Shown here: positions 4,104 through 49,574 of the stretch, one piece after another
Position numbering within the stretch: position 1 is the stretch's first letter
How the letters are laid out: every line of letters begins with the position of its first letter
Assembly (NCBI GenBank): GCA_963663275.1
Contig: OY760183.1
Location: 2,144,001 to 2,208,000, forward strand
Source of the DNA: Chloroflexota bacterium
GTDB lineage: Bacteria; Chloroflexota; UBA11872; VXOZ01
DNA: 64,000 bases
Direction of reading: 5' to 3'
Made by a program: the position numbers and the translations under genes
Notes under the pieces: model-generated
What the model was told of the DNA's origin: nothing
The model's input: only the letters and a program-made list of their open reading frames with translations
The model's database searches: none

Positions 4104-6329
4104 TCATCCACCGTCCGCCGCCAGTGCTTCCGGTATTCCATTTTGCCACGCCCGGCGCGCTTGCGCCAGTGGCACGCGCACCGCGTCGCCGAGCGCCAGG
4201 TCGTCACCGCCTACCCGTCCGATGACGACGCAGGGCACACCGCGCGCGGCGGCGGCCGCGTTCACCGCCGCCAGGTTGCGCTCCGGCAGGCTGACGACGA
4301 TGCGCGACTGGCTCTCGCCGAAGAGCAGTCCATCTATCCGCCCGCTGCCCGGCAAGTCCGCCCGCACGCCCAGGCCCCCCGCGATGGCGCTCTCGGCGAG
4401 CGCGACGGCCAGGCCGCCCTGGGAGCAATCGTGGGCGCTGCTCAACTGGCCGTCGCGAATGAGTTGCCGGCAGACGGCCTGCACCCGGGCTTCCACGTCC
4501 AGGTCTATTGGCGGGGCGCGGCCCGCTACCCTGTCATGGATTACAGTGAGGTACTCGCTGCCGCCAAGATCATCGCTCGGCGGGCCCAGCAGCGCGATGA
4601 GGTCGCCTTCTTGTTTTAGGGCCGGCGTCGCGCTCTGTTTCGCGTCGTCCAGCTTGCCCACCATGCCGACCATGGGCGTCGGATAGATCGCTTGGCCGCG
4701 GGTCTCGTTGTAGAGGCTGACGTTGCCGCTGACGACCGGCACGCCCAAAGCCTCGCAGGCCGCGGCCATGCCGCGAATCACGCCCTCCAACTGGTAGTAG
4801 ACGTCGCTCTTCTCCGGATTGCCGAAGTTGAGGCAGTTGCTAAGGGCAAGCGGCTCCGCGCCGACGCAGGCCAGGTTGCGCGCCGCTTCCGCCACGGCGA
4901 TCGCGCCGCCCGCGAACGGCTCCAGATAGCAGTAGCGCCCGTTGCCGTCGATGGTGACGGCCAGTCCCAGCGGCGCACCTTTGACGCGCAGCACGGCGGC
5001 GTCTCCGCCCGGGCCCTGAACCGTATTGACCTGGACGCTATAGTCATACTGCTGATAGACGCTCTCCTTACTGGCGATGTTTGGGCTTGCCAGCAAGGAA
5101 AGCAGAACGTCGTTGTAATCTTGCGGCTCCGGCAGGGAATCCGGCTCGAAGGCGCGGGTCTCCCGCAAGTAGGCGGGCGGCGCGCCCTCCCGCGCGTAGG
5201 TGGGGGCGTCGGCGAGCAGGTGCGCGGGAATCTCCGCCGCCGCCTCCGCGCCGTGCCGCACGCGCACCACGCCGTCGTCCGTGACGGTGCCGATGACGGT
5301 GGAGTGCAATCCCCAGCGGGTGAAGATGGCCTCCACCTGCGCCTCCGCGCCGCGCCGCACGATGGCGAGCATGCGCTCCTGGCTTTCGCTCAGCATGATC
5401 TCGTAGGGAGTCATGCCTTCTTCACGGCAGGGCACACGGCTTACGTCGATGTCCACACCGCTTTCGCCCTTGTGCGCCGCTTCCACCGCCGAACTGGTCA
5501 AGCCGGCCGCGCCGAGGTCTTGCAAACCTACCAGGTAGTCGGTCTCGCCCAACTCCAGGCAGGCCTCGATGAGCAGTTTTTCCATAAAGGGGTCGCCCAC
5601 CTGCACCACGCCCCGGTGCGAAAGCTCCGGGTCGTCCAGAGAGGCGAACGACGCGCCGTGAATGCCGTCGCGTCCGGTCGCCGCGCCGACCAGCATCAAC
5701 GTATTGCCAGCGCCCCGGGCCCGCGCCCGAATGAGCTTCTCGTGGGGAATGAGGCCGACGCACATGGCGTTGACGAGCGGGTTGCCGTTATAGGACGGCG
5801 CGAAATTGACCTCGCCGCCCACGTCCGGGATGCCGACGCAGTTGCCGTAGTGGCTGATGCCGCCGACGACGCCGTTGAAGAGATAGCGGTTGCGCGCCTC
5901 CGCGAGCGGGCCGAAGCGCAGCGAGTTGAGCAGCGCGATGGGACGCGCGCCCATGGTGAAGATGTCCCGCACGATGCCGCCGACGCCGGTGGCCGCGCCC
6001 TGAAACGGCTCGACCGCGCTGGGATGATTGTGGCTCTCCACCTTGAAGACCACCGCCAGGCCGTGGCCGATGTCCACCGCGCCGGCGTTCTCTTCGCCCG
6101 CGCCGATGAGCACGTGCGTACCGGCGGTAGGCAACAGCTTCAAAAGGGGCCGGGAGTTCTTATAGCCGCAATGCTCGCTCCACATCGCGCCGAACATGCC
6201 CAGTTCGACGCGGTTCGGCGGGCGGCCAAGCTGGGCGCAGACGCGGTCGTACTCGCCGCGGGTGAGCGAGACTTCCCGCAGGTCGGCATCGGTTACGGCA
6301 CTTTCCACTTGAGACACGCAAATCCTCAC
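4104..6329 (-). CDS. purL: FGAM synthase subunit PurL
   Basis: MWSEHCGYK, KVESHNHPS, DLGAAGL, LSESQERM, HDCSQGG; exact start uncertain. Confidence 0.96.
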   Translation of the reverse strand: MRICVSQVESAVTDADLREVSLTRGEYDRVCAQLGRPPNRVELGMFGAMWSEHCGYKNSRPLLKLLPTAGTHVLIGAGEENAGAVDIGHGLAVVFKVESHNHPSAVEPFQGAATGVGGIVRDIFTMGARPIALLNSLRFGPLAEARNRYLFNGVVGGISHYGNCVGIPDVGGEVNFAPSYNGNPLVNAMCVGLIPHEKLIRARARGAGNTLMLVGAATGRDGIHGASFASLDDPELSHRGVVQVGDPFMEKLLIEACLELGETDYLVGLQDLGAAGLTSSAVEAAHKGESGVDIDVSRVPCREEGMTPYEIMLSESQERMLAIVRRGAEAQVEAIFTRWGLHSTVIGTVTDDGVVRVRHGAEAAAEIPAHLLADAPTYAREGAPPAYLRETRAFEPDSLPEPQDYNDVLLSLLASPNIASKESVYQQYDYSVQVNTVQGPGGDAAVLRVKGAPLGLAVTIDGNGRYCYLEPFAGGAIAVAEAARNLACVGAEPLALSNCLNFGNPEKSDVYYQLEGVIRGMAAACEALGVPVVSGNVSLYNETRGQAIYPTPMVGMVGKLDDAKQSATPALKQEGDLIALLGPPSDDLGGSEYLTVIHDRVAGRAPPIDLDVEARVQAVCRQLIRDGQLSSAHDCSQGGLAVALAESAIAGGLGVRADLPGSGRIDGLLFGESQSRIVVSLPERNLAAVNAAAAARGVPCVVIGRVGGDDLALGDAVRVPLAQARRAWQNGIPEALAADGG

Positions 6330-10506: not shown

Positions 10507-12327
10507 CTATTGCGAGTTTGAATCTTTCGAGGTTTCCTCGCCGGACTCGGCCTGGCCGTCGGTTGAGCCGGACGGATCGCCGTTCGAGCCGGGCGACTCC
10601 GCCGGTCCGTTCGTCTGCTGGCCCAAGGCCAGGCCTCCGGCGTAGCCGGTGAGCGCGGCAACGCCCACGGGTTCGCGCTGAGGCTGGTGCGCCTCGATAA
10701 TCTCCATGACTTCCTCGCCGTGCAACTCCAATTGCTCCAGGAGACGCTCGGCAATCACGTGCACCTCGTCGGCGTGTTCCGCCAGCAGTTGCTTCACCTC
10801 GCGGTACTGCTCGTCCAACAAGGCCTCGATGCGGCGCTTGGTGTCCGGGTCGATGCCGCCCAGGCCGGCGGGCATCGCCAGATAGGAATAGAAGCTGTTG
10901 CCCATCCCAAAGTAGCCAAAGTACCCCATGGCCAGGCGCGTGGCCTGCTGCAAGTCGGAGGTGACACCGGTGAGGCCGGTCCCCAGGAAGAGTTCCTCGG
11001 CGGCGCGGCTGGCGAGCGCCACCTTGATTTCCGAAAGTATCTCTTCCCGCGTCTGCGTATAGCGCTCTTCCAGCGGCGTGCTCGCGGCCAGACCCAGCGC
11101 GCGGCCGTAGCGGATGATCGTCACCTTGGAGAGCTTGTTCTCCGGCTGGAGCAGCGCCATCGCGATGGCGTGGCCGGTCTCATGGTAGGCCAACCGCCGC
11201 CGTTCCTTTTCACTCATGCTGCGAATTGGCTGGCGCAAGCCCCACTCGTTCGTCTCGCGCGCCTCGCTGAAGTCCTTGTAGGAGATGTAGTCCCGGCCCT
11301 CGAAGTGCGCCACCACGGCCGCCTCGTTGATGAGGTACTTGATGCTGACGGGCGTATAGCTCACCGTATCGGCGGCAATCTTGTCGATGTCGATGTCCGG
11401 GTCGTGCCGCACCTTGTCCAGGTAGTATTGGATAACGTCCTTGCGGCCGTCGAAGTCCGGCGCGTCGATGGTAATTTTCCGGTCGAAGCGACCCGGCCGC
11501 AGCAGGGCTTGGTCCAGCACTTCGGCAATGTTGGTAGCGCCAATCGTGAGCACAACCGGCTGCACGGCCTTTCCCCGGCGCAGACCCAACCGGCGCAGAA
11601 TGCGCGCCTTCATACTCGTATCCACGTTGGGTGGATCCATCTCGAGCAGCAGCGTGTTGAGCATGCCCATGCCGCCGCCGAACATGCCGCCCATCGCGCC
11701 CATGCCGCCGCCCATCTGCGAGGTGCGGGCGGTGCCAACGGCGTCAATCTCATCGATGAAGATGATGGCGGAGCCGTACTTGCGCGCGAGCCGCCGCGCC
11801 TTGCCGTAGAGCATCATGATGCGCAGGTTGCCGACGCCCATGAACATGTTTTGAAAACCGGGCGCGGACGCATACGCGAACGGCACGCCGGCCTCGGTAG
11901 CGATGGCCTGCGCCAGGTAGGTCTTACCCGTGCCGGGCGGGCCAATGAGGAGCAGGCCGCGGGAGACCTCGCCGCCCATGCGCTTGAAGTCGCGCACGCC
12001 GCGCAACAGGGTCACAATGCGCGCGGACACTTCCAGCACCTGCTCGTTGCCGCGATAGTCCTTGAACGATATGCCGGTTTCGCCGCCGGGCATAATCCAA
12101 TAGACGCGGCCTCTTCCCAGGAACCAGAAGAGCGCCACGAACTGTATCAGCACGAAGAGAATCGCAAACGCAAGCTGGAAGAGCGTTGCGAAGATCATGA
12201 ACAGTATGCTCAGGACAGTGGGCGCGCCGAAGGTGGCGAGAGACCACCAGAAACCAAGCGCGACGACTACCCACAGCAGGATGCCGCGCCAATGCCGACC
12301 GATGAACCCCAGCACTCCGCCAATCAT
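10507..12327 (-). CDS. FtsH-like AAA+ ATPase / M41 metalloprotease paralog
   Basis: N-terminal TM segments, Walker A GPPGTGKT, Walker B IFIDEID, ALLRPGRFDR, HETGH zinc motif. Confidence 0.88.
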   Translation of the reverse strand: MIGGVLGFIGRHWRGILLWVVVALGFWWSLATFGAPTVLSILFMIFATLFQLAFAILFVLIQFVALFWFLGRGRVYWIMPGGETGISFKDYRGNEQVLEVSARIVTLLRGVRDFKRMGGEVSRGLLLIGPPGTGKTYLAQAIATEAGVPFAYASAPGFQNMFMGVGNLRIMMLYGKARRLARKYGSAIIFIDEIDAVGTARTSQMGGGMGAMGGMFGGGMGMLNTLLLEMDPPNVDTSMKARILRRLGLRRGKAVQPVVLTIGATNIAEVLDQALLRPGRFDRKITIDAPDFDGRKDVIQYYLDKVRHDPDIDIDKIAADTVSYTPVSIKYLINEAAVVAHFEGRDYISYKDFSEARETNEWGLRQPIRSMSEKERRRLAYHETGHAIAMALLQPENKLSKVTIIRYGRALGLAASTPLEERYTQTREEILSEIKVALASRAAEELFLGTGLTGVTSDLQQATRLAMGYFGYFGMGNSFYSYLAMPAGLGGIDPDTKRRIEALLDEQYREVKQLLAEHADEVHVIAERLLEQLELHGEEVMEIIEAHQPQREPVGVAALTGYAGGLALGQQTNGPAESPGSNGDPSGSTDGQAESGEETSKDSNSQ

Positions 12328-12712
12328 AGTCTCACCGTGCCTTCCATGCGCTACGAGGACAGGTTGCTATCACTGTACCACTTTTGCCGCCTGGCGCGGT
12401 TCTGACACCGCCAGTCCGCGCGTGCGCCCCCAAGCATAACTCTGATTGCCATTATAGCACGCGCAATCAAGGCGATTGCCGCTCGCTTCACAACAACTGT
12501 AAGAATTGCCTAAGAGTCTCGCGTTCATAGCAGGGGAGATCATGCCGCCGCCGGTTGGATCCCGCATAGCGAGCGCAGGCGCGCCCAGCGCGCTTTTCCG
12601 CCTCTCCCCGTGCAAAGGCGTTGCGCGGCGCGGTATAGTGGCACGAGAGTTTCACCCGGCCGGGCACGGCCATGTTCTCGCGCCCCGCCGAGACGATCGC
12701 AGGATTTTCCGC

Positions 12713-13471
12713 ATGACGGTAACCACGTCCGACATCCGCGCGGGACTGGAAGTGCTTGGGGTCGTATCCGGCGACCTGCTGCTCGTCCATAGTTCGCTGC
12801 ACAGCTTTGGCTACGTGGAAGGCGGCGCCGACGCGGTGATCGACGCGCTGCTGGAAGCGGTTGGCGACGGCGGCACCGTGCTCGTCCCCACGCTCACCTT
12901 TTCGATTCTCAAGTCCCGGCCATACCGCTTCTCGGTCAGCGGCACGCCGTCTTCGTCGGGGCGCATTACGGAGACCTTGCGCCAACGCGCGGCGGCCCTG
13001 CGCAGCCGCCATCCCGTCTCGTCGGCCGCCGCCATAGGAGCGCAGGCGGCGTACCTGACCGCCGCGCACGATGACACGCCCTGCGGCCCGGGTTCGCCCT
13101 ACTACCGCCTCTGCGAGCGTGGCGGCAAGGTTGTCTTCTTGGGCGCGTCGCTCGGTTCCAATACGGTCTTCCATTGCGCTGAAGAGATTGCGCGACCCGC
13201 TTACTTGGGCTTCGCGACGATCGAAAACGCCATCGTGGAGGACGCCGACCGCCGCCGGCGCGCGGTGACCGCCCGCCGCTATGACTGCTTCGACCGGGGC
13301 GTTATCCGCCACTTAGGCAACATGGAGCCGGTTTTCCGGGAGCGCGGGCTCCTGCGGCGCGCGGTAATTGGGGAGTGCCGCGCGTACCTCATCGACGCCC
13401 AGCAAAACGTCGGCGTCTCCTGCGAGGTTCTGAAGACGAACCCGGAGTACATTCTCTCGCCTCTGCCCTGA
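12713..13471 (+). CDS. AAC(3)/YokD family N-acetyltransferase
   Basis: LLVHSSL..FGYVEGG, GTVLVPT, RSRHP..S, NTVFHCAEE; ATG at 12713. Confidence 0.85.
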   Translation: MTVTTSDIRAGLEVLGVVSGDLLLVHSSLHSFGYVEGGADAVIDALLEAVGDGGTVLVPTLTFSILKSRPYRFSVSGTPSSSGRITETLRQRAAALRSRHPVSSAAAIGAQAAYLTAAHDDTPCGPGSPYYRLCERGGKVVFLGASLGSNTVFHCAEEIARPAYLGFATIENAIVEDADRRRRAVTARRYDCFDRGVIRHLGNMEPVFRERGLLRRAVIGECRAYLIDAQQNVGVSCEVLKTNPEYILSPLP

Positions 13472-13536
13472 CAAGACCGGTACCTGACCCATTTGGCAGC
13501 GAAGGCAATCCCTCTCCTAACGGAAGTCGAGACGGT

Positions 13537-13565
13537 GTAGGGGCACGACATGTCGTGCCCCTACA
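13537..13565. repeat. GTAG-type REP palindrome (GTAGGGGCACGACATGTCGTGCCCCTAC)
   Basis: Perfect intergenic palindrome; related copy GTAGGGGCGGTTCGCGAACCGCCCCTAC at ~27676-27703. Confidence 0.8.
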
Positions 13566-13715
13566 CCGGTGTGCGCGTTGTTCAAGGAACTTAATGGGGC
13601 GTCGCCGTCACCGTTCGTGGCCCGGCGAATTCTGCGACAACGATGGGGCTTAGGGCTAACCCTGCACTCCGCCCTGCTATCGCCGGCGCGCCACCCTCAC
13701 GCGAATGTCCGCCTA

Positions 13716-13769
13716 AAACACCATCCTGTGCCGTCCGTGCTTTATGGAAACAACATAGTGTGCTATAGT
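13716..13769 (+). promoter_or_regulatory. Tandem NrdR-box-like sites plus extended -10 (TGcTATAGT) upstream of nrdR
   Basis: AAACACCATCCTGTGC (13716-13731) and AAACAACATAGTGTGC (13748-13763), 13/16 identical, 32 bp offset; resemble the NrdR consensus acaCwAtATaTwGtgt. Confidence 0.6.
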
Positions 13770-13859
13770 ATGACTGTCTCCCGGTGGGCGCGCATTGCCG
13801 CTGGGCAGGCGGTTTCCGCCGGATTGGACGGATTGAAAGAAGCCTACGGAGGCACAAGC

Positions 13860-14501
13860 ATGCGCTGTCCTCGGTGCGCCAAGCAAGATACCCGCGTGGT
13901 TGACAGCCGTCCGGAAGAGTTGAGTATCCGCCGCCGCCGCGAGTGCGGCAATTGCGGCCACCGCTACACGACGTACGAGCGCCTGGAAGTGCTGGCGTGT
14001 CCGCACTGCGAATCAAACGAGTCCCGCGTCTCGTCGTACCATCTGCTGCGGGCGGGCGCGCGGCGCTTTCGTGAGTGCCTGCGCTGCGGGCGCGACTTTA
14101 CCACCACCGAGCGGGTGGATCCGGTGCCGCTGACGGTGGTGAAGCGGGACGGACGCCGGGAGGAGTTCAACCGGGGAAAACTGCGCGAAAAGATCAGCAC
14201 GGCCTGTTGGAAGCGCCCGGTCGGCTCGAAGCAGATTGGCGAAATCGTAGAGGGCATCGAGGGGGACTTGCTCGCAATCGGTGAACCCGAGGTGGAGTCT
14301 ACGGTGATTGGCGATAGAGTAATGCAGCGGCTGCGCGTGCTCGATGAGGTGGCCTACGTGCGCTTTGCCTCGGTCTACCGCCGCTTCGAAGACATCGACA
14401 GCATCGCGGAAGAGATTGCCGAATTCCAGCAGTGGAAACGCAGCCGCGCGCAGCCCGACCAGATTGCGCTGCTGCCTGAAGAATCTTCTCTCTCCCAGTA
14501 A
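13860..14501 (+). CDS. nrdR: Transcriptional repressor NrdR with tandem duplicated zinc ribbon
   Basis: CPRC..VVDSR..RRRRECGNCGHRYTTYER, second CPHC..RRFRECLRCGRDFTTTER, ATP cone VVKRDGRREEF, VAYVRFASVYR. Confidence 0.9.
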   Translation: MRCPRCAKQDTRVVDSRPEELSIRRRRECGNCGHRYTTYERLEVLACPHCESNESRVSSYHLLRAGARRFRECLRCGRDFTTTERVDPVPLTVVKRDGRREEFNRGKLREKISTACWKRPVGSKQIGEIVEGIEGDLLAIGEPEVESTVIGDRVMQRLRVLDEVAYVRFASVYRRFEDIDSIAEEIAEFQQWKRSRAQPDQIALLPEESSLSQ

Positions 14502-14611
14502 TCCGACACTGTGCGGAGGACGCAATCCGTCCACGCCGCCGCCAGCGGCCATGCCCAACGTAATCCGCCGGCCCGACGCGCGCGGCCGGCGCACCCGGAA
14601 CCCACGCTCAA

Positions 14612-15019
14612 ATGCGCAATTTTCTCGTCTACTGGCTGCCGCCGCTGCTCTGGATGGCGTTGATCTTCTACGGCTCGTCGCAGTCCACGCTGCCGTCGCC
14701 TTCCAGCACACTGCTCAACGTGCTGCTCAAGGCGGGCGGACACGTGGTGGAGTACGCCGTGCTGGCCGTGCTCCTGCACCGGGCAATTGACGCGCGTTTT
14801 CAGCACCCCGCCATTCAGCCGCTGGCGCTCGTCATGGTCGCCCTCTACGCGGCGAGCGATGAACTGCACCAGTCGTTTGTGCCCGGCAGGGTGGCATCCT
14901 GGAGCGACTTTGCCCTTGACATAATGGGCGGCGCGGGCGGACTGCTGCTGTGGAACATGGCGCAGCGGTGGCGCGAGCGCGGCCTGCCGCTGCCGGGGCG
15001 CAACCAACGCGAGCCGTGA
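14612..15019 (+). CDS. VanZ-like family membrane protein
   Basis: WMALIF..SS, K..H..EY, YAASDELHQSFVPGR..D. Confidence 0.85.
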   Translation: MRNFLVYWLPPLLWMALIFYGSSQSTLPSPSSTLLNVLLKAGGHVVEYAVLAVLLHRAIDARFQHPAIQPLALVMVALYAASDELHQSFVPGRVASWSDFALDIMGGAGGLLLWNMAQRWRERGLPLPGRNQREP

Positions 15020-15033
15020 TCCGGCGCCTGCGC

Positions 15034-16449
15034 CTACTTGCCAATGCAGAACTCGCCGAAGATGCGGTCCAGCAGGTCTTCCGTCGCGCTTTCGCCGGTG
15101 AGTTCGCCAAGCGTGTACAGGGCGGCGCGCAGCCCAATACAGACGAAGTCCTCCGGCAGACCCTCGGCCGCGGCTTGCCGGGCTTCCACCAGCGCGGTGC
15201 GCGCTTCCGCAAGGGCGGCGTGGTGGCGGAGCGAGGCGACCACGGCGCTTTCGGGCACCAGCTTCTCTCGCAAGAGCGTCTTCCCAATTGAGTCGCGCAG
15301 GGCGCGCAATCCGTTTTCGGCGAGGGCCGAGGTCAGCGCCACCGGGCAGCCGTCCAGCATATCTGCTACGTCTCGCGGGCGCAGCGCGGGGGGCTTGTCG
15401 GCCTTGTTCAGCGCGATAATGGCGCGTTGGTCCCGGTCTGCCTCCAGCGCGCGCTTCACTTCCGCAATCACGGCGCGGTCCGCGGGCTGGAGCGTCATGC
15501 TGCCGTCCAAGACCACGATAATCAGGCGGGCCGCCGCCAGCGACGCCCGGCTGCGTTCCACGCCAATCCGCTCCACCGGGTCCTCGGTCTCCGCGATACC
15601 GGCGGTATCCGACAGTATGAGCGGTATGCCTTCGACGTCAACCGTCTCTTCCAGCACGTCGCGGGTGGTGCCGGGAACGTCGGTCACGATTGCCCGGTCG
15701 GCGCTGAGAAAGGCATTGAGCAGGCTCGACTTGCCCACGTTGGGGCGTCCCACCAGCACGGCGCGCACGCCGTCGCGCAGGATAGCGCCGCTCCGCGCGG
15801 TGGCGAGCAATCGCTCCAAGCCGGTGAGCGCGGCATCCAGCGCCGCCAATACCTCTTGCGCCGGTACCGGGGGCACGTCATCGTCGCTGAAGTCGATGTT
15901 GGCTTCCAGGCGCGCCAGGAGGTTGAGCGCCTGCCGGCGAATGCGCCGCACCTGCCGCGACAAGCGGCCGTCGAGTTGGCCGAGCGCGAGCGCAAGGCCG
16001 CTGCCGGTGCGCGCCCGCACCACGTCCATTACGGCCTCGGCCTGCGCCAGGTCCAGCTTGCCGTTGAGGAAGGCGCGCAGTGTGAACTCGCCGGGCTGCG
16101 CCAGGCGCGCGCCTTGGCCGAGCAGCAATGCGAGCGCGCGCCGCAGCGCCAGCGGGCTGCCGTGGCACGAAAACTCGACTACGTCTTCGCCGGTATACGA
16201 GCGCGGCGCCCGCATGAAGGTGCAGAGCGCCTGGTCCACGGGCGCGCCGCGCTCCGGATCCACCAGCAGACCCACGTACACGCGGTGACTCCGCCAACTG
16301 CCGGGTCTCTCCCGCCGGAAGCAGCGCCTGGCGATTTTCAGCGCCGCGCCGCCGCTCATGCGGACGATGCCGATTGCGCCCTCGCCCGGCGGCGTCGCTA
16401 TCGCCGCTATCGTATCCTCGACGTTCACGCCGCCATTGCCCGCTGCCAT
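15034..16449 (-). CDS. mnmE: tRNA modification GTPase MnmE
   Basis: DTIAAIATP, SYTGED, GEFTLRAFLNGK, GRPNVGKSS, GTTRD, C-terminal FCIGK. Confidence 0.97.
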   Translation of the reverse strand: MAAGNGGVNVEDTIAAIATPPGEGAIGIVRMSGGAALKIARRCFRRERPGSWRSHRVYVGLLVDPERGAPVDQALCTFMRAPRSYTGEDVVEFSCHGSPLALRRALALLLGQGARLAQPGEFTLRAFLNGKLDLAQAEAVMDVVRARTGSGLALALGQLDGRLSRQVRRIRRQALNLLARLEANIDFSDDDVPPVPAQEVLAALDAALTGLERLLATARSGAILRDGVRAVLVGRPNVGKSSLLNAFLSADRAIVTDVPGTTRDVLEETVDVEGIPLILSDTAGIAETEDPVERIGVERSRASLAAARLIIVVLDGSMTLQPADRAVIAEVKRALEADRDQRAIIALNKADKPPALRPRDVADMLDGCPVALTSALAENGLRALRDSIGKTLLREKLVPESAVVASLRHHAALAEARTALVEARQAAAEGLPEDFVCIGLRAALYTLGELTGESATEDLLDRIFGEFCIGK

Positions 16450-41534: not shown

Positions 41535-41587
41535 CGATTCAACTCTCCCTAGCGCTGCTGCAATACTTCTCGCTAACCTGCCTTGCC

Positions 41588-41989
41588 CGTAGCGCGGGGG
41601 CTTGTCCCCCGCCGTCCTTCACTGTCTTGGGGGCTTGCGCCCCGCCTTCCCTCACCGTAGCGCGGGGGCTCTTCCCCCGCTGACCTTGACTGTCTTGGGG
41701 GCTTGCCCCCCGCTTCTCCTCACCGTAGCGCGGGGGCTCATCCCCAATGCTGTCGCATTAAACACAATGAGAGTGAAAACAACGCTCGTTTCTCCGGTAG
41801 CGCAGGTTTGTAACCTGCGTCTTCCGTAAGGTCAATCCATTCCGTTCTCATTTTTCTTGTTCCGGCGGGGGACAAGCCCCCGCGCTACGTTAATGCGACA
41901 GTATTGGGGCTCATCCCCCGCTGACCTTGACTGTTCCCGGGGCTTGCCCCCCGCTGTCCCTCACCGCTGCGCGGGGGCTTCTCTCCCGC
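41588..41989. repeat. Tandem array of 68-bp double-hairpin REP units, interrupted by a MITE
   Basis: Units start at 41588, 41656, 41724 and 41965 (= 41724+68+173). Confidence 0.85.
41745..41906. mobile_element. 162-bp MITE with IS4-like ends
   Basis: TIRs CAATGCTGTCGCATTAA / TTAATGCGACAGTATTG (16/17), 11-bp duplication GGGCTCATCCC. Confidence 0.82.
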
Positions 41990-42053
41990 GCCAACCGCCG
42001 CGCCTGCCCATGCCTTCAACGTCCATGCCGCGCGTGCGGTTTCCGCGCTCACC

Positions 42054-42392
42054 TTACGACGAACCCGCCGCCTGTTCCGCCAAGGCCGCCTCCTCTTCCT
42101 GTTCCACCGCCAGCAAGTCCTCCAGGCCTTGGGCGACCTGCCGGAAGCCGGCGCGATTGATCGTGTAATGCACTTGCCGCCCGTCTTTGGCCGCGTCCAC
42201 CAGGCCGGCGCGGCGCAAGATGCTCAGGTGCCACGAGAGCAACGGCTGGCTGATGCGCACGTGCTCCCGCAGTTCCGTCACCGTCATCGTCTCTTCAGCC
42301 GCCAGCACCCGCAGAATCTCCAAGCGGGAACGACTGGCCAACGCCCGCAACTGCCTGCTTAGCTCACGCACCGATCTCTCCTGCAAAGGCAT
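42054..42392 (-). CDS. ArsR/SmtB family transcriptional regulator
   Basis: LRALASRSRLEIL, SQPLLSWHLSILRRAGLV..GRQVHY; no Cys. Confidence 0.9.
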   Translation of the reverse strand: MPLQERSVRELSRQLRALASRSRLEILRVLAAEETMTVTELREHVRISQPLLSWHLSILRRAGLVDAAKDGRQVHYTINRAGFRQVAQGLEDLLAVEQEEEAALAEQAAGSS

Positions 42393-42430
42393 CGCTGCTC
42401 CTAACCAACCTGCCGCCTGACCAACAATAT

Positions 42431-42488
42431 ATCAAATATCGTTGAAGTGATTTTTCTTTATATTATCCTGTTCTGTAGCTTAAGTCAA
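42431..42488 (-). promoter_or_regulatory. Putative sigma70 promoter and ArsR-type operator
   Basis: Minus-strand TTGACT (42483-88), 17 bp, TAATAT (42460-65); ATCAA-N6-TTGAA near-palindrome at 42431-42446. Confidence 0.5.
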
Positions 42489-42500
42489 CAGATCCTGGCG

Positions 42501-42530
42501 TTGACGGTGGGCTGCCTGCGTTGATAGACT
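42501..42530 (+). promoter_or_regulatory. Putative sigma70 promoter of the island operon
   Basis: TTGACG, 18 bp, TAGACT with TG at the extended -10 position. Confidence 0.5.
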
Positions 42531-42594
42531 AGGATTGCACAGAATCTGGGATAGTTCAATCAGTCTGTTTGCCCAAGTGAGTAGAAGGTAGTCA

Positions 42595-43788
42595 TTGCGG
42601 AGAGCCATCTATCTGGACTATGCAGCAACTACGCCCGTCGATCCCCATGTAGCAAGAGCTATGATGAGGTTCTTGGGAACTGACGGGACGTTTGGCAATC
42701 CAGCATCACGTACACACCGCTTCGGTTGGCAAGCCGAGAAAGCGGTTGAAAACTCCCGGCAGGAAGTGGCGGAACTGATCAAAGCGGAACCGGATGAAAT
42801 CATTTGGACTTCGGGAGCCACGGAGTCGGACAACCTAGCAATCAAGGGCGTTGCCAATGCCTACGCCGACTGTGGCAAGCACATAGTCACTTCGGCAATT
42901 GAGCACAAGGCCGTGCTGGACTCATGTCGATACTTGGAAGGTCAAGGGTATGAGGTTACGTACATTGAGCCGAGTGCTGAGGGGATTGTTTGCCCTGAGG
43001 AAGTAGAGTCGGCCTTGCGTTCTGATACAATCTTGGTATCTTTGATGCACGTCAACAATGAGATTGGAACCATTACTGATGTCAAGGCCATTGCTGCGAT
43101 CACTCGCGAACGCAACATTCCTTTCCACGTTGACGCTGCACAGAGTGCCGCACGCCTGAAGTTAGATGTGCAGAGTATGCAGGCCGACCTCTTGTCTCTA
43201 AGTGGGCATAAGATGTACGGTCCCAAGGGAATCGGGGCGTTGTATGTTAGGCGAAATCCACGGATACGACTAGAGGCCCAGATGCATGGTGGGGGACACG
43301 AACTTGGCATGCGTTCAGGAACTCTACCCACTCACCAAATTGCAGGAATGGGCGAGGCTGCCCGTCTCATTGAAGAGCGACGTGAGTCTGACGGCGCCAA
43401 GATTGACTTTTTGTCGAAGCGCCTTCTGAGCCGCTTAGAGAAGATTGAGCAGTTATCAATCAATGGAAAGCGTACAAGTTGCGTGTCGGGCATCATAAAT
43501 GTGACCATTCCATCTGTCGAAAGTGAATCGCTAATCATGATGCTTAGAGGCAATATAGCCATATCTACTGGGTCTGCGTGTACTTCGGCAAGCGTGGAGC
43601 CCTCTCACGTCCTGAGAGCGCTTGGAATGGATGTAGAAGCCGCACACAGTTCTCTCCGGCTGAGTTTGGGTAGGTTTACGACTGCTGAAGAGATAGACTA
43701 TGCTACTGAACAGATCAGCGGCGCCGTAGACGAATTGCGCAGCATTTCTCCCAATTGGTTGGAGCATCGCAAGAGGATTGAAGCATGA
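42595..43788 (+). CDS. dndA: Cysteine desulfurase, DndA/IscS-like
   Basis: [44 protein letters not shown]; symbol based on context with dndC. Confidence 0.85.
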
Positions 43789-44951
43789 GTACTTCCTACG
43801 CGGACAGCTGCGGGCAAGCTACCCAAAGTATCGCCGCCCACCTCGCCTCCGTGTCTGAAGTAATGAAGGCTGAGTATCGCAAGAATCACTCCGATCCCTG
43901 GATTGTTGCCTATTCCGGGGGCAAAGATTCGACGTTGCTGATGCAGTTGGTTTGGGAGATGCTCTTGTCGCTTGATCCGGAAGAGCGCCGCCGCATGGTT
44001 TACGTCGTAGCTAACGACACGCTGGTCGAATCTCCCCTTGTCATTGAGCATTTGAAGCAGAGCATTGATGTCATTCGCCAAACGGCGGACGAGATGGGAT
44101 TGCCAATTACCACTCAGATTACCAAGCCCTATGTAGACCAGACATTTTGGGTCAATGTCATAGGACGCGGTTATATTCCACCGACACGCAACTTCCGTTG
44201 GTGTACAGACAGGATGAAAATCCAACCGACGAATCGCTTGATAGAGGAACTCGTCGCCCGACATAGACGCGCAATACTGCTTGTGGGTACGCGCCGCAGC
44301 GAATCTCAGAGCCGCCGCCGCAATATGCAGAAGCATCGCGTGAGAGCCGACAAGATGAATCCGCACAGTTCTATAAAGGGCTGCCGGATGTTCGCGCCGC
44401 TTGCGGACTTGCAGGACGATGATGTGTGGATGATTCTCATGCAGAGAAAGCCGCCGTGGGGCGGCTCGCATCGTAACCTGATAACGCTCTATCGCAATGC
44501 GGGTGGGGGCGAGTGCCCGCTGGTACTAACCAAAGAAGATGCCCCGTCATGCGGCACAACTTCACCACGGTTCGGCTGCTGGACGTGCACCGTCGTCACG
44601 AAGGACCGCAGTATGCGCGGGACGATTGATTCCGGACATGCCCAGCAGGTGAAGTTGGAGGCACTATTCAGTTTTCGTGAGTGGCTAATTGAACTCCGTG
44701 AGGACAACGATAACCGTTTGCCGGTACGCCGTGATGGACGTACCAAGACTCGTGTGGATGGCTCTCGTGTTTTTGGCCCATTTAAGCTTGAAGTACGCAA
44801 GCAAATCCTGATTAGGTTGCGTAAGATGGAGGAGCAAATCGAAGAGCGGCTTGTTTCGCAATCTGAGATCATGGTCATTGAGGACATTTGGTGGCGTGAT
44901 AAGATTCGCGAGCAGGGCCGTCTTTCCTTGCTTGAAAAGTTGAATGTGTAG
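43785..44951 (+). CDS. dndC: DNA phosphorothioation sulfurtransferase DndC-like (PAPS reductase fold)
   Basis: [51 protein letters not shown]...[17 protein letters not shown]. Confidence 0.9.
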
Positions 44952-44956
44952 ATTCT

Positions 44957-46744
44957 ATGGTGCTTAGCTACGATCCGACAACGGTTGTAGAAGCAAGGGC
45001 TTCTACCTTATCCTCACTACTCTATAAAGGTGAGTTCGAGGTTCCGTGGCATCAACGAAACTACGACTGGACGAAAGAGGATGTCGAAGAGTTCTTGCAG
45101 GACTTAGACGAGGCATTTAGAGAGGAAAGGTCATCCTATTTCCTGGGAGCTATCGTATTGGTCAAGAAGCTGGAAGGCAAGTGGGAAATAAACGATGGGC
45201 AGCAACGTATGGTGACCTTCTCGCTGGTTTGCGCTCGGCTCGTTCGTAAATTCGCAGATGGTGTCGATTCCCGGTGCGAAGCACTAGCACTACGCGTAAT
45301 TTTCAATTTGAGTGAGAATCACATACGTGAGCTCTCGGAAGCTGAAGATCTCAGACCACGAATAACCCCACCTCAGCACGACAAGATGAATTTTGATTCG
45401 CTAGTACGTGGGCAGAACATCGGCACAAATGGCAAGCTCAAGACTGCTTGGGACGAGATTGACAGACATTTCACAACCATGAGTGCTGATGAGGCAAAAG
45501 GTTTCTTGGAATTCATACTCACAAGGCTAGAAGTGGCCTGTCTATTTGTTCCAAGTGAAATCGACCCCAGTGCCGTATTTGAAACGCTGAATGCGCGCGG
45601 AAAGCCTTTAGATGACTTAGACCTGATAAGGAATCATCTCTATTCGTTCTTTAGCGGAGACTCCATGAAGACCAAAAGGGAGACTGCACACGAGAACCTG
45701 GAGAGATTTCGTGCCCAGCTTCGGAGGCAAGAGGAGCCGGCAGAGTACCTGCGTTGCTTCTTACAGTGCAGATTTGGTTACTTGAGGAAAGATCGCTTTT
45801 ACCGAGACGTCAAGAGCAGAATAAAGACCGCCTGCGGAGGATTGCTCTCGCCAGATTCACCCGAGTATGTTTTTGGCCTGATAAGCGAGTTTTCCGCACT
45901 AGACAAGGTCGAACTCTTCCGCTCCATTGTCTCACCTAGTGAGGATGCGGACTTAGTCAAGAGTTTCTTGCGATATTCAGGACAAGCTAATTCTCCTAGG
46001 AATCTATTTGCGTTCTTGAAGGAACTCAGGAGCTACAAGATTACAAGACCCATCGTATTCGGGCTACTTTACCACTATGTTCGAGAAGCGGATGGCAGAG
46101 AGAAAAGGCGAGTAGCAAAGCTCGCACACCAACAATTGGACCTGCTATCGTCCTTTGTAATGCGGACAGCCACGATCACGTCAAGATTTGTGCCTTCTCA
46201 ATTCGAGAGTGAGTTCTCGAACCTAGCAAGTACGATCATGCACGCTAATTCTCTTGATAACGTCAATATCGTGAATGCCTTACGCGCAAGAGATGATGCC
46301 GGCGTTTTTGAGGACTCAGTTTTTGTTGAGAGGATGGCACAAGTGCAAATTCGCAACAACACAAAAGCCAGACGAATTTTGCTAGCCCTAGCTTATTTTC
46401 ATCAATTTGACGACCTTGTCATGAATGAAGAGCGGTACACAGTGGAGCACATTTTGCCCGATTCAGACAAGCACCTAATCGGCTGGAAGAGATTCAATGA
46501 GCGAGCACATACGGAGTATGTTTCTCGCCTCGGAAACCTTACCTTGCTCAGCAACGTGGACAATCGCCCTGGAACAGCCGACAACCAAAGTTTCACTAGG
46601 AAAAGAGAGATATTTGAAAGTAGTGCAATTCGACTTTCCCGGGCGATTGCTGGATGCTCAGACTGGTCGCCCGAGGAAATCCAGAAACGGCAGTGTCGAT
46701 TAGCTAAGTTAGCCTCTCAAGTGTGGCGTTTACCTGATGTATAA
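44957..46744 (+). CDS. DUF262 + DUF1524/HNH protein (SspE/GmrSD-like nuclease)
   Basis: VPWHQRNYDW, YFLGAIV, DGQQR, FETLNARGKPL..DLIRN; C-terminal VEHILP..RLGNLTLL...N. Confidence 0.9.
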   Translation: MVLSYDPTTVVEARASTLSSLLYKGEFEVPWHQRNYDWTKEDVEEFLQDLDEAFREERSSYFLGAIVLVKKLEGKWEINDGQQRMVTFSLVCARLVRKFADGVDSRCEALALRVIFNLSENHIRELSEAEDLRPRITPPQHDKMNFDSLVRGQNIGTNGKLKTAWDEIDRHFTTMSADEAKGFLEFILTRLEVACLFVPSEIDPSAVFETLNARGKPLDDLDLIRNHLYSFFSGDSMKTKRETAHENLERFRAQLRRQEEPAEYLRCFLQCRFGYLRKDRFYRDVKSRIKTACGGLLSPDSPEYVFGLISEFSALDKVELFRSIVSPSEDADLVKSFLRYSGQANSPRNLFAFLKELRSYKITRPIVFGLLYHYVREADGREKRRVAKLAHQQLDLLSSFVMRTATITSRFVPSQFESEFSNLASTIMHANSLDNVNIVNALRARDDAGVFEDSVFVERMAQVQIRNNTKARRILLALAYFHQFDDLVMNEERYTVEHILPDSDKHLIGWKRFNERAHTEYVSRLGNLTLLSNVDNRPGTADNQSFTRKREIFESSAIRLSRAIAGCSDWSPEEIQKRQCRLAKLASQVWRLPDV

Positions 46745-47073
46745 TGGAGAAGCATACAAGATCATTATCGCCGTGGTCATATCCTACCCTTTCACGTGTT
46801 CCAGATGAGATTACCGGTGTCTATGCGTTCTGGTGCAGGGACAACGGAAAGTGTATCTATGTCGGCCAAGCGAAAGAGCGGTCGATTAGGGAGCGCCTAA
46901 GAGACCATTGGCACGGCTCGCACAATGAGATCTTGGGGTTGTGGATAAAAGTTTACGGTGAGACGCTGGACGTGTGCTACCTGTCTGTTGAGAGAGACAG
47001 GATCGACACACTTGAGAGACGCCTAATAAAGGTGTGGAAACCTGAAGCGAACAAGCAGCACAGCCAACGGTAA
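46744..47073 (+). CDS. Stand-alone GIY-YIG nuclease
   Basis: GVY..IYVG, IRERLRDH, E..LI...KP..N; TAATG overlap with upstream stop. Confidence 0.85.
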   Translation: MEKHTRSLSPWSYPTLSRVPDEITGVYAFWCRDNGKCIYVGQAKERSIRERLRDHWHGSHNEILGLWIKVYGETLDVCYLSVERDRIDTLERRLIKVWKPEANKQHSQR

Positions 47074-47084
47074 AGGAAGCAGCG

Positions 47085-48365
47085 ATGCCGACAACTCTAC
47101 CAGCCATGAAAGCCCGGTTGGGCAATACTGACTACTATATCCTTTCAATGAAAGCTCAGGAACTGTCTGACAGAGTCAAGATCCCGCGGGAATTGGAAGG
47201 TTGGGAAGACATGTCGGTCGAGGAGCGCTATCAGCGCGACCTCAACTATAGCCGTGTGAAAAATCAGATTGCCCCATACTTCGCTAACGACGAGTCACGG
47301 TTCTTCGGGGCAGTCATCGTCGCAGCGATGAACTTCGACGACCAAGATCAATTTGAGCCTCTCTCCGACATGCTGACGAGGGGAGTACCCAATTTGTACA
47401 AGACGGCAGCAACTTCGATAGGGTTTCTCACATTTAAGGGAGGAGAGGTCCTAGTTCCTCTTGACGGGCAACACCGCATCAAGGCGATTGAATTTGCGGT
47501 TAGTGGACTTGATGAACGAGGTCGTGAGATTACGAGCATAGAAACGCCTTGCACGGGACTCGCTCAGGAAGATGTCACTGTTATCCTTGTCCCCTACGAG
47601 TCTAGAAGTGCGCGTAGGATTTTCACACGAGTAAATCGTTACGCCAAGCCCACGACAACCGGACAGAACATCGTAACTGATGACGATGACATCATTGCGG
47701 TCATAACCCGTGAAATCTCCAACGACCTAATAGGTGCAAGGCTAGTTAAATTCAGCACCAACACTTTGAATAGAAGTGATCGGCACTTTACGACTCTTGC
47801 GATAATTTACAATTGCAACGCGGCAATTATCGCAGACAATTTCCCAAAGGGGAAAGTTGACAAGACCCGTTTGCCTAGCTCAGAGAATGTAATCCTCTTT
47901 CGCAAGAAGGTGTACGAGGTTTGGGAGCAGTTGCTTGAAAGTGTAGAAGTGTTTAAGGACGCTCTGGCTGATACCGAGAGCGGAAGCGATGAAAAGCGGC
48001 GCAATATTCGAGAGTCCAATTTGCTTGGCAAGCCGGTTGCTCAAGAGTGTCTGGTGCGCGCCTTTGTGCGCCTGGTAAGTCCGCCGACCAACCTCTCAAT
48101 GGATGATGCCTGCGACAACCTAAATCGCTTGCCTTGGGCAATCACAGAGGAGAACCTCCAGGTTTGGGACCGAGTGCTTTGGACCGGCGGTGTGGATGGA
48201 AGGATAATCACTAAGAACCGGAACCTAGCAACCAAGTTGATTTCCTATCTCGCAGGCGAAAAGCTTGGTGATGATGTGATATCAGAGTTGCTTCAAGACT
48301 ACCGAGCGCAATTCCCGGAAAGCGATCGGATTAACAAGCAACTGCCAGATGTGCCCAAAGTTTGA
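47085..48365 (+). CDS. DGQHR domain protein (DndB-like)
   Basis: YQRDLN.SR, RFFGAVIV, LDGQHR, IFTRVNRYAK..DDDD. Confidence 0.88.
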   Translation: MPTTLPAMKARLGNTDYYILSMKAQELSDRVKIPRELEGWEDMSVEERYQRDLNYSRVKNQIAPYFANDESRFFGAVIVAAMNFDDQDQFEPLSDMLTRGVPNLYKTAATSIGFLTFKGGEVLVPLDGQHRIKAIEFAVSGLDERGREITSIETPCTGLAQEDVTVILVPYESRSARRIFTRVNRYAKPTTTGQNIVTDDDDIIAVITREISNDLIGARLVKFSTNTLNRSDRHFTTLAIIYNCNAAIIADNFPKGKVDKTRLPSSENVILFRKKVYEVWEQLLESVEVFKDALADTESGSDEKRRNIRESNLLGKPVAQECLVRAFVRLVSPPTNLSMDDACDNLNRLPWAITEENLQVWDRVLWTGGVDGRIITKNRNLATKLISYLAGEKLGDDVISELLQDYRAQFPESDRINKQLPDVPKV

Positions 48366-48443
48366 GCCGCAAATAGCTAAAGATCTTTGACACTCAACTC
48401 AGTGTGTCTTCCTGCGCGTGGCACTTGCTAGCATAGTACCAAC

Positions 48444-49574
48444 ATGCGAGTGGCACTGGCGCACGATTACTTCTATGCCCTGGGAGGCGCGGAGCGGACC
48501 GTGGCGGTTATGCGCGGGCTGTGGCCGGCGGCGCCCGTGTACACAGCTTTCGTTGACTATGGGACGTTTCCGCGCCTGCGGGGCAGTGCGCTGGACGTGG
48601 CGGCGTGGGACGTGCGCGCGTCGTTCCTGCAGCGGGTTCCGCACCCGGCCCGCTACCAGAAGTATCTCACGCCGCTCTACCCGCTGGCGTTTCGCGGCAT
48701 CGACGTGGGAGCCTACGACGTGGTCGTTTCCTCGGCCAGTTTCGCGGCGAAGGGCATTCCACGCCATCCGTACACCCTGCACGTGTGCTACTGTTACACG
48801 CCGCCGCGCTTCCTGTGGGGCCTGACGCCGGCCACGGACCGCGGGCGCATGTCCTGGCCGCTGCGCGGGCTCGACGCGCTGTTGCGGCCGCCGCTGCGCC
48901 GGTGGGACCGCTGGGCCGCCGCCCAGCCGCACCATCTCGTGGCCATCTCCCAGACCGTGGCGGCGCGCATCCGCAGAGTCTATGGCAGAGAATCGACCGT
49001 TATCTATCCGCCCGTCGCCACGCGCCGCTTCCAGTCGCAGCCCTGCCGCGATGAGGGGTATTATGTATTCGTGGGGCGGCTGGAGGCGCACAAGCAGGTT
49101 GACGTGGCGATCGCGGCGGCGCAAGCCGCCGGCGTTCCCCTGCGTGTCATCGGCGACGGCCCGCTCCGCGAGAGCCTGGTACGCACAGTGCCTTCCAACG
49201 TGACTATCCTCGGCTGGCTGCCCGAGCAGGAGTTGAGCGCACAACTCGCCGGCTGCCGCGCGCTTCTCTTTCCCGGTGAAGAGGATTTCGGCATCGTCAT
49301 GGTCGAAGCCCTGAGCGCGGGCAAGCCGGTGATCGCTTACGGCGCCGGCGGCGCGACCGAGATCGTGCAGCCGGAGGTGAACGGCGTGCTGGTGCCCGAG
49401 CAGTCGGCAGACGCTTTCGCTCAGGTACTGCGGTCATTCGACCCCAACCGTTTCTCACCGGCGACGTGCCGGGAGACGGCAACGCGCTTCGATGAATCAG
49501 TCTTTGCCGGTCAATTCAAGGCGTTCGTGGAAGAAAAGTGGACGACATTCGTGCAGACAAGACCGACCGGCTAG
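48444..49574 (+). CDS. GT4 glycosyltransferase
   Basis: VALAHDY...GGAER, HVCYCYTPPR, VIYPPV, EDFGIVMVEA. Confidence 0.9.
   Translation: MRVALAHDYFYALGGAERTVAVMRGLWPAAPVYTAFVDYGTFPRLRGSALDVAAWDVRASFLQRVPHPARYQKYLTPLYPLAFRGIDVGAYDVVVSSASFAAKGIPRHPYTLHVCYCYTPPRFLWGLTPATDRGRMSWPLRGLDALLRPPLRRWDRWAAAQPHHLVAISQTVAARIRRVYGRESTVIYPPVATRRFQSQPCRDEGYYVFVGRLEAHKQVDVAIAAAQAAGVPLRVIGDGPLRESLVRTVPSNVTILGWLPEQELSAQLAGCRALLFPGEEDFGIVMVEALSAGKPVIAYGAGGATEIVQPEVNGVLVPEQSADAFAQVLRSFDPNRFSPATCRETATRFDESVFAGQFKAFVEEKWTTFVQTRPTG

Follow-up and report, generated by a model that had tools for sequence, protein, structure and literature searches.

Among the closest described systems for marking DNA with phosphorothioate (PT) is that of Salmonella enterica Cerro 87, in which DndI, a PT-stimulated ATPase and nickase, protects against phage together with IscS-DndBCDE (PMC11662687; this paper, PMC12914056, PMC10164549, PMC10853773 and PMC6790972 are cited throughout from the parts of their text that were available). 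The locus treated here lies in a 64,000-nucleotide stretch of a Chloroflexota chromosome (contig OY760183.1, positions 2,144,001 to 2,208,000; hereafter the window) and consists of five genes encoding, in order, the cysteine desulfurase DndA, the sulfurtransferase DndC, a DndI-like protein, a GIY-YIG nuclease and a DndB-like protein with a DGQHR domain. It shares with the Salmonella system a cysteine desulfurase, DndC, a DndB-family protein and a protein of about 596 amino acids (aa) that joins DUF262 to DUF1524 and carries a DGQQR motif and a His-Me nuclease. However, the window lacks DndD and DndE, its DndI-like gene is fixed directly after dndC and codes for a predicted DndC binder, its DndB-like gene stands last in the operon and scores far under the DndB equivalog cut-off, and a GIY-YIG nuclease has been added. 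The locus looks like an undescribed variant of PT-type DNA-marking immunity, all of Dnd type and lacking DndDE, and it probably represents a self-contained, mobile PT-type modification-restriction system that works without DndD and DndE.

Another comparison is offered by SspABCD-SspE, which likewise combines a cysteine desulfurase, a PAPS-reductase-family enzyme and a DUF262-DUF1524 effector, the latter a PT-sensing nickase in Ssp. Gene 2 of the window, however, scores 388 bits with the PADLOC model for DndC against 34.6 bits for SspD, and gene 3 scores 259 bits with HEC-06 (its best model) and 194 bits with Orf5 against 60 bits for SspE; SspE chains are about 770 aa long, compared with 595 aa here. 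A sequence-only reading of this stretch had called the effector SspE-like and the locus a Dnd/Ssp hybrid. Neither label survives: the best sequence and fold match of the effector is DndI and gene 5 is DndB-like, so that all parts are Dnd-type. TdpABC, whose partner proteins we take to be an ATPase and a nuclease, is also a compact PT-type system, and its DndC-like enzyme needs no DndD/E-type partner for modification. It is known here by citation only, as a system in which tdpC alone suffices for PT synthesis (cited in PMC12914056), and it is set apart by description only, the fixed partner in the window being a DndI-like ParB/Srx-NTPase-HNH protein.

Canonical DndABCDE loci, and loci in which DndC is followed by a CxC/PbeC-like ABC ATPase and DndE-HerA, encode a DndC of the same length (about 380 aa) that is 46-49% identical to the window's and shares its PP-loop and cysteines, and some of these DndD-linked loci also have DndA upstream and a DndB-like gene downstream. 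They differ in always carrying a DndD-type ABC ATPase and a DndE domain, and their DndCs form a sister clade without the conserved C-terminal tail motif. GmrSD and BrxU type IV enzymes share the DUF262+DUF1524 architecture, and BrxU is a fold match of the DndI-like protein; these enzymes act alone on modified phage DNA, whereas the window's subfamily has DndC upstream in all 80 loci compared. Another DNA modification depends on DpdB, a ParB-like ATPase (PMC10164549).

Earlier surveys were built around the proteins that are missing here. That of Rakesh, Aravind and Krishnan (2024; PMC10853773) is anchored on DndD/CxC-DndE as the functional core, treats modification as non-functional without them and, in the available main text, mentions neither GmrSD nor DUF262. 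In looking for new PT systems, Yuan et al. (2026; PMC12914056) made a neighbouring P-loop NTPase a condition for dndC; one small dndC cluster, accompanied by a DUF262 gene, is named there as a candidate still to be tested. The dndA/dndC/DUF262-DUF1524 triad is mentioned in passing for sponge Thaumarchaeota (Moeller et al., 2019; PMC6790972). Literature searches, with the supplementary tables of PMC12914056 and PMC10853773 outside their scope, did not turn up any description or test of a DndDE-less system of the DndA-DndC-DndI type. The claim of the sequence-only reading that the locus matches none of the known systems was nevertheless overstated, given the single-gene TdpC report and the mention of the triad.

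The DndA, DndC and DndI-like triad and its distribution

The DndI-like gene is obligately linked to dndC. A scan that used an alignment of the DUF262-DUF1524 subfamily as query found 108 relatives, and among the best 80 of these DndC lies directly upstream in 80/80 loci, DndA too in 62/80, and a DndD/E-like gene is missing within 5 kb in 77/80. The conserved core is therefore three genes, DndA-DndC-DndI-like. A tblastn search with the five window proteins agrees: a GmrSD-type gene directly follows DndC in 30 of the 31 closest loci (L002-L032), 17 of which also carry the GIY-YIG and DGQHR genes. In a DndC scan limited to one genome per species (597 relatives, best 80 kept), 12 loci instead have an SNF2 helicase core, ParB_N, HTH_ParB and a metallo-beta-lactamase/beta-CASP-type nuclease.

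DndD and DndE are absent from the source genome, a single contig of 3.53 Mb that is 99.57% complete. Whole-genome searches gave no match for DndE, a double-RHH DNA-binding protein (TIGR03184, PF08870), and, for the ABC/SMC-like ATPase DndD (TIGR03185), a best score of 18.8 bits, a P-loop match, against a cut-off of 245.85. The genome behind L039 (G001), which has dndACDE, served as positive control and gave matches for both; the first controls had been silent for DndE. Among further triad genomes, DndE is absent from the whole genome in 4/4 and in 35/40 (40/45 with the window's genome) and DndD is over its cut-off in 0/4, and neither dndD nor dndE was found in the 5/5 genomes checked for both. 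DndD likewise does not occur within 8 kb in the homologous loci of the DndDE-less clade described below, and Pfam gave no P-loop/Walker family match in any of the five window proteins.

DndC itself divides along the same line. In a tree of 85 rows, every DndD-less locus of the high-identity set falls in a 38-row clade (SH-aLRT 99), with GmrSD and/or DGQHR alongside in 36 of the 38 rows (L014 and L033 have neither), and all 43 DndD-linked rows fall in a 46-row clade (SH-aLRT 99). The tree places one further DndC+GmrSD locus, the divergent L059, basally on the DndD side, where it forms a long branch. By sequence, then, the DndCs of DndI-like loci form their own clade, sister to the DndD-linked DndCs. 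The distant DndCs (about 46-52% identity) are of the same length; behind them come a DndD/PbeC-type ABC ATPase and a DndE domain that is often HerA-fused, or else they stand in dndACDE operons. At L043:9327-12946, and in most of L035-L081, a PbeC/DndD-type ABC ATPase precedes a DndE-HerA/FtsK-type fusion (~510 aa), often with a DndB-like gene downstream.

Both sulfur enzymes are of recognizable type. Gene 1 matches Aminotran_5 (286.7 bits) and IscS NF010611 (580.4 bits; cut-off 548), the PADLOC models for DndA and SspA both match it at about 540-550 bits (DndA 538.8), and it falls under the cut-off of the DndA equivalog TIGR03235 (436.5 against 480 bits). It has the HK motif of the pyridoxal-phosphate lysine and the STGSAC cysteine loop. 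The island desulfurase is, judging by sequence, an extra, island-borne copy, because the genome has at least 16 further class-V aminotransferase genes. Gene 2, the single DndC of the genome, passes the cut-off of DndC TIGR03183 (345.1 against 290.4 bits), and its SGGKDS motif and C140, C244, C256, C265 and C268 are invariant across 32 sequences. A short DndC was considered as a hallmark of the system and ruled out, the DndD-linked relatives being likewise about 376-400 aa; longer DndC profiles include a C-terminal region found in other DndCs. An IbrA/IbrB-like reading (DndC-like plus ParB) was also set aside, except as a loose theme: PRK06850 gave 398 bits, under its cut-off of 536, and the literature gave nothing useful.

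These results bear out much of what the letters had suggested. Open reading frames (ORFs), junctions and GC bins agree with five co-oriented, tightly packed genes in a low-GC block; the motifs of all five products are intact (HK/STGSAC, SGGKDS with cysteines, DGQQR/His-Me, the GIY-YIG residues and DGQHR); the PADLOC DndA and TIGR03183 matches make the sulfur donor and transferase Dnd-type; and the claims of no Walker-type ATPase and no DndD/DndE were each upheld by the searches above, which also show a recurrent, selected unit in place of a decayed dnd cluster.

Carriers span at least 10 phylum-level lineages and include many candidate taxa with sponge-related names. Closer to the window, the nuclease occurs in 3/16 other species of the same genus and in 0/24 genomes from other genera of the same class. 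Viral contigs held no relative of the DndI-like subfamily, and plasmids held only DUF262 proteins at <=25% identity. The five-gene operon is a horizontally acquired unit and probably a horizontally mobile one.

Synteny with L002, another Chloroflexota chromosome, extends over the island and both flanks at 72-78% nucleotide identity (about 76% for the island), so that the island predates the split from the L002 lineage. Four genes are under purifying selection, with ratios of nonsynonymous to synonymous substitution (dN/dS) against L002 of 0.128 for DndA, 0.080 for DndC, 0.121 for GIY-YIG and 0.067 for DGQHR. The DndI-like gene has a nucleotide identity of 0.62 and a dN of 0.31, with dS saturated, while the dN of its neighbours is 0.07-0.15; this points to diversifying selection or allele replacement. 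Its product (44957-46744) is 59-60% identical to that of L002:9173-10984, compared with 74-87% for the neighbouring genes (DndC 87%). Over 61 loci, pairwise distances of DndC correlate with those of the DndI-like protein (r 0.87) and with those of DndA (r 0.87), and the mean p-distance is 0.53 for the DndI-like protein against 0.34 for DndC, about 1.6x faster.

One might suspect that a canonical dnd cluster has decayed or been split, or that orphan dndAC genes came by chance to lie beside an unrelated type IV (GmrSD) gene of a defence island. Grounds for this would be the best PADLOC model for gene 3, the stand-alone candidate HEC-06, and the clustering of defence genes at related loci (NsnA-like by L003 and L004, cas around L010). 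The adjacency in 80/80 loci, the co-divergence at r 0.87, the separate DndC clade, the motifs still intact and the purifying selection still acting at about 24% nucleotide divergence from the syntenic sister genome, and the 5/5 genomes without dndD/E all argue otherwise. A decayed cluster or chance neighbourhood is very improbable and can be regarded as effectively excluded.

The DndI-like protein and its predicted complex with DndC

Gene 3 matches GmrSD_N PF03235 with 97.7 bits (cut-off 33.2) and GmrSD_C PF07510 with 78.2 bits (cut-off 23). These domains show superfamily membership only; stand-alone type IV action is unsupported, because the subfamily was never seen without DndC upstream. The PADLOC Orf5 models align end to end with gene 3 (positions 4-543 of 543), and Orf5 is DndI under its old name (PMC4198939). 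The best PDB sequence match is DndI, 9JFL (596 aa), ahead of SspE. An AlphaFold model of the protein (predicted local distance difference test score, pLDDT, 88.7) has the fold of DndI: it matches 9JFL over the full length with an E value of 3.8e-16 and TM scores of 0.65/0.65 in both normalisations, followed by SspE (1.7e-12) and BrxU (E 1.3e-4), at a sequence identity to DndI of only about 17% in the fold alignment. By sequence and predicted fold, gene 3 is closer to DndI than to SspE. In the subfamily the DGQQR and His-Me elements (EH..P / GN..L / N) are invariant or nearly so, the window's protein having Arg84 in DGQQR and His498 as the His-Me histidine, and P30 and Q33, which correspond to P23 and Q26 of DndI, are invariant.

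Modelling suggests that DndC and the DndI-like protein form a complex. The pair scored 0.80 in three runs, and none of 3 controls rose above 0.00; at least 86% of contacts are common to the runs, and the pLDDT of the partner is at least 82. The score mark is reached by 58/80 solved complexes and 2/110 mismatched pairs, counts that are only rough for models built with one's own alignments. Recall of a solved complex by the model is unlikely because the PDB holds no DndC-like chain by sequence, a search with DndC giving no match. In the predicted interface, the last ~20 residues of DndC (~370-388) contact the partner in the helical region that separates its two domains, at residues ~250-254, 314-336 and 375-383. 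Conservation of the tail residues R371, D372, I374, R375, E376, R379 and L382 reaches 0.62-1.00 in the DndDE-less clade; in DndD-linked DndCs it is <=0.44, except for D372 (0.89). The model supports, but does not show, binding of DndC to the DndI-like protein.

From homology, DndA would take sulfur from cysteine as a persulfide, and DndC, a PP-loop ATP pyrophosphatase with cluster-binding cysteines, would activate the DNA backbone and insert the sulfur. The product would be phosphorothioate. Conserved adjacency, co-divergence and the complex model suggest that DndC acts in physical complex with the DndI-like protein, whose ParB/Srx-type NTPase and His-Me nickase domains may take over the DNA handling done elsewhere by DndD/DndE or SspB/SspC. 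If DndI and SspE are a guide, the DndI-like protein may also sense PT on self DNA and nick unmarked invading DNA, and it may aid both modification and restriction. The GIY-YIG nuclease and the DGQHR NTPase would together be an accessory module open to exchange, serving for regulation or as a second arm of restriction; elsewhere it is replaced by the SNF2 helicase, ParB, HTH-ParB and metallo-beta-lactamase-type nuclease, or by an ABC ATPase with DndE-HerA, and these downstream modules may be alternative effectors or regulators.

A more specific form of this proposal, tentative and somewhat doubtful at present, assigns both functions to one complex. Here the DndI-like protein would be at once the DNA-targeting and nicking subunit needed by DndC for phosphorothioation, replacing DndD and DndE, and the restriction nuclease. 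Modification would owe its specificity to the rapidly changing sequence of this protein, with the modules further downstream acting as swappable second-line effectors. Such an arrangement would be analogous to type III or IIG restriction-modification enzymes.

The main rival explanation is that DndC, with DndA, makes PT alone and that the DndI-like protein is purely a PT-sensing restriction nuclease, the predicted contact being regulatory or spurious and DndD/E unreplaced. The DndI-like protein indeed resembles proven effectors in its fold and in both catalytic motifs, and it evolves fast like effectors under phage pressure (dN 0.31 against 0.07-0.15; p-distance 0.53 against 0.34). The report that tdpC alone suffices for PT provides a precedent (cited in PMC12914056), and some DndCs of the clade lack a DndI-like neighbour, having an HNH protein (L033), only DGQHR (L088) or none (L014). 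Several observations do not fit, however. DndC is upstream in every DndI-like-anchored locus, the DndI-like gene takes the place of dndD relative to dndACDE operons, and the clade-specific DndC tail is predicted to dock on the DndI-like protein (0.80 against 0.00 for controls). Canonical DndI, moreover, works with the full DndBCDE machinery (PMC11662687). We consider synthesis of PT by DndC alone rather unlikely.

The chemistry of the mark is a separate matter. PP-loop enzymes acting with cysteine desulfurases also thiolate RNA; ThiI, MnmA, Ncs6 and TtcA are listed in PMC12914056. The usual DNA-handling partners are missing here. DndA and DndC might make another sulfur mark, a thiolated base or an adenylation-dependent adduct on DNA or RNA, that is read by the nucleases. 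Some loci stand beside QueC/QueE (L025) or a dnd-associated methyltransferase (L024). Such a mark is improbable: DndC passes its curated equivalog cut-off, shares every invariant cysteine and the PP-loop with DndD-linked DndCs at 46-49% identity, and has partners that all belong to DNA-directed families (DndI-like, GIY-YIG, DndB-like, SNF2, ParB).

For the preferred reading, a PT-type system that works without DndD and DndE, several points weigh on the other side. What is said of PT modification, of its sequence specificity and of anti-phage activity is inference throughout. The complex score expresses model confidence and was built on our own shallow alignments, and conservation at the predicted interface is below the average of either protein (0.37 against 0.56 for the DndI-like protein, 0.55 against 0.73 for DndC). 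The position of Tyr25, with which DndI is reported to sense PT, is His32 here, W31 and H32 being nearly invariant in the subfamily. The DndC tree came from a quick IQ-TREE search, not a careful one, and nearly all carriers are metagenome-assembled genomes. Many record titles refer to sponge-associated lineages, so the sample may represent one habitat with much gene exchange. DndE is found somewhere in 5/40 triad genomes (1 adjacent, 4 distant), and a DndD-like ABC ATPase with DndE-HerA stands beside the triad in 3/80 loci; because such genes are carried there, cooperation with DndDE-type proteins where present is possible. Finally, SspB (DUF4007) and SspC (a DUF499-type ATPase), sought with PF13182, PDLC02761 and PDLC02775, had no match in the genome, in searches that lacked a positive control.

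Accessory modules and genomic setting

The two remaining genes of the operon are intact. Gene 4 has Pfam GIY_YIG_2 and GIY-YIG matches, and Y27, Y39, G41, R51, E91 and N103 are kept in 13 sequences. Gene 5 matches the DGQHR domain TIGR03187 with 95.7 bits (cut-off 58.85) and Pfam DndB with 93 bits; with the DndB equivalog TIGR03233 it reaches 54.5 bits against a cut-off of 328, and it is 23-25% identical to the DndB-like genes of DndD-linked loci. Its DGQHR motif is invariant in 26 sequences. In the model of the protein (pLDDT 87.7) the N-domain is of ParB/Srx type, its best structural matches being PadC, pNOB8 ParB, KorB and sulfiredoxin at middling Z values of 5.5-6.6. Foldseek against the PDB returned nothing at E <= 0.001, and a PDB sequence search one chance-level match only.

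GIY-YIG+DGQHR is one of at least 3 interchangeable accessory modules, and a minority form. It accompanies 21 of the best 80 nuclease-anchored loci, compared with 52 that have SNF2+ParB; 2 have ParB without a detected SNF2 and 2 have nothing recognised. The sequence-only reading had taken all five genes as the unit, and while the same arrangement does recur, the conserved unit is the triad. Within the DndDE-less DndC clade the accessory modules are interleaved, so the two have, on this tree, been exchanged repeatedly. The DndD-like ABC ATPase and DndE-HerA genes lie upstream of the triad in L105 and downstream in L113 and L154. In the latter two the module is of the same kind as follows dndACDE in L039, and the triad therefore occupies the place of a complete modification module beside an exchangeable second module.

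The commonest module after DndA-DndC-DndI-like (L004:10979-14921, L025:10952-14910 and 50 more loci) has four genes, encoding an SNF2 helicase core (~460 aa, DpdE/ZorD-like), ParB_N, HTH_ParB and a metallo-beta-lactamase/beta-CASP-type nuclease; the last three members are without a PADLOC model. A Dpd-like reading of this module was rejected, the 342-aa protein being the metallo-beta-lactamase/beta-CASP-type nuclease and not DpdA.

Other variants are found at single loci or pairs of loci. An ORF of 589 aa at L092:6314-8083 fuses DndI-like residues 9-217 to DGQHR protein residues 67-423, which suggests deletion or recombination between two ParB/Srx-type domains, or an assembly artefact. After two DndCs of the DndDE-less clade, an HNH_4 protein (~380 aa) replaces the DndI-like protein (L033:9128-10261; L087:5829-6983, the latter plus DGQHR), and in L088 DGQHR directly follows DndC. 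L024 carries beside the triad, at 11033-12970 and 13737-15050, a TIGR04096 'DNA phosphorothioation-associated putative methyltransferase' (469 bits) and a second, distant DndB-like gene. QueE and QueC (7-deazaguanine precursor synthesis) lie directly upstream of DndC in one locus only (L025:5746-7325). The triad often stands in defence islands: NsnA-like GmrSD_N genes adjoin L003 (4969-6156) and L004 (14995-16125), and in L010 the triad is flanked by cas2 and cas3, one per side (5639-5923 and 12524-14203).

Features of the operon and its surroundings, in coordinates of the window
Feature	Position	Strand	Description
dndA	42595..43788	+	397 aa, TTG start; IscS-subfamily cysteine desulfurase
dndC	43785..44951	+	388 aa; PP-loop / [4Fe-4S]-type sulfurtransferase
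dndI-like gene	44957..46744	+	595 aa; N-terminal DUF262 (ParB/Srx NTPase, DGQQR) and C-terminal DUF1524 (His-Me nuclease)
Stand-alone GIY-YIG nuclease	46744..47073	+	109 aa
DGQHR-domain, DndB-like ParB/Srx-superfamily protein	47085..48365	+	426 aa
Low-GC island, ~6 kb between housekeeping genes	42400..48400	.	GC bins and flanking gene content
Promoter-like site 5' of dndA, weak consensus match	42501..42530	+	TTGACG-18-TAGACT with TG, 9/12 matches

As read from the sequence, genes 1 and 2 overlap in ATGA and genes 3 and 4 in TAATG; 5 bp separate genes 2 and 3, and 11 bp, which contain AGGAAG, separate the GIY-YIG and DGQHR genes. The promoter scan of the region found 8 sites against a shuffle mean of 5.7, and thus no enrichment. 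GC content is 0.456-0.530 per 500-bp bin over 42500-48499 and 0.606-0.706 in the neighbouring bins on both sides. The flanks of the island include inositol-1-phosphate synthase, an ArsR regulator, glycosyltransferases and PfkB kinases; no integrase was seen adjoining the five-gene block and no tRNA in the 64-kb window. The ArsR-family regulator (42054-42392, minus strand) is divergent to the operon, has host-like GC and is also kept in L002.

GC-rich hairpin repeats at 41570-42000, just 5' of the island, have units of ~81 nt with the core GCGGGGGCT-NNN-CCCCCGC and are absent at the syntenic L002 locus. The 25-nt core pattern has 525 copies genome-wide (284 forward, 241 reverse), compared with 0 for a reversed-pattern control. 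Because of this occurrence across the genome, the repeats are a genome-wide REP-like element outside the defence system.

Implications for phosphorothioation

Current accounts hold a P-loop ATPase and a DNA-binding partner (DndD/DndE, SspC/SspB, BrxC) to be obligatory for PT installation, and searches built in this way would miss a DndDE-less system. If the preferred reading is true, the chemistry of sulfur insertion can be coupled to a different DNA-handling engine. Should the DndI-like protein combine targeting and restriction in one complex with DndC, the triad would be a fifth, mechanistically distinct PT route, with a ParB/Srx-type NTPase instead of a P-loop ATPase. On the preferred reading a three-gene PT system would also be available for reconstitution and would allow a direct test of whether DndI/SspE-type 'readers' of PT also help its 'writers'. 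The finding also bears on the richness of PT genes in symbiont communities (Moeller et al., 2019; PMC6790972).

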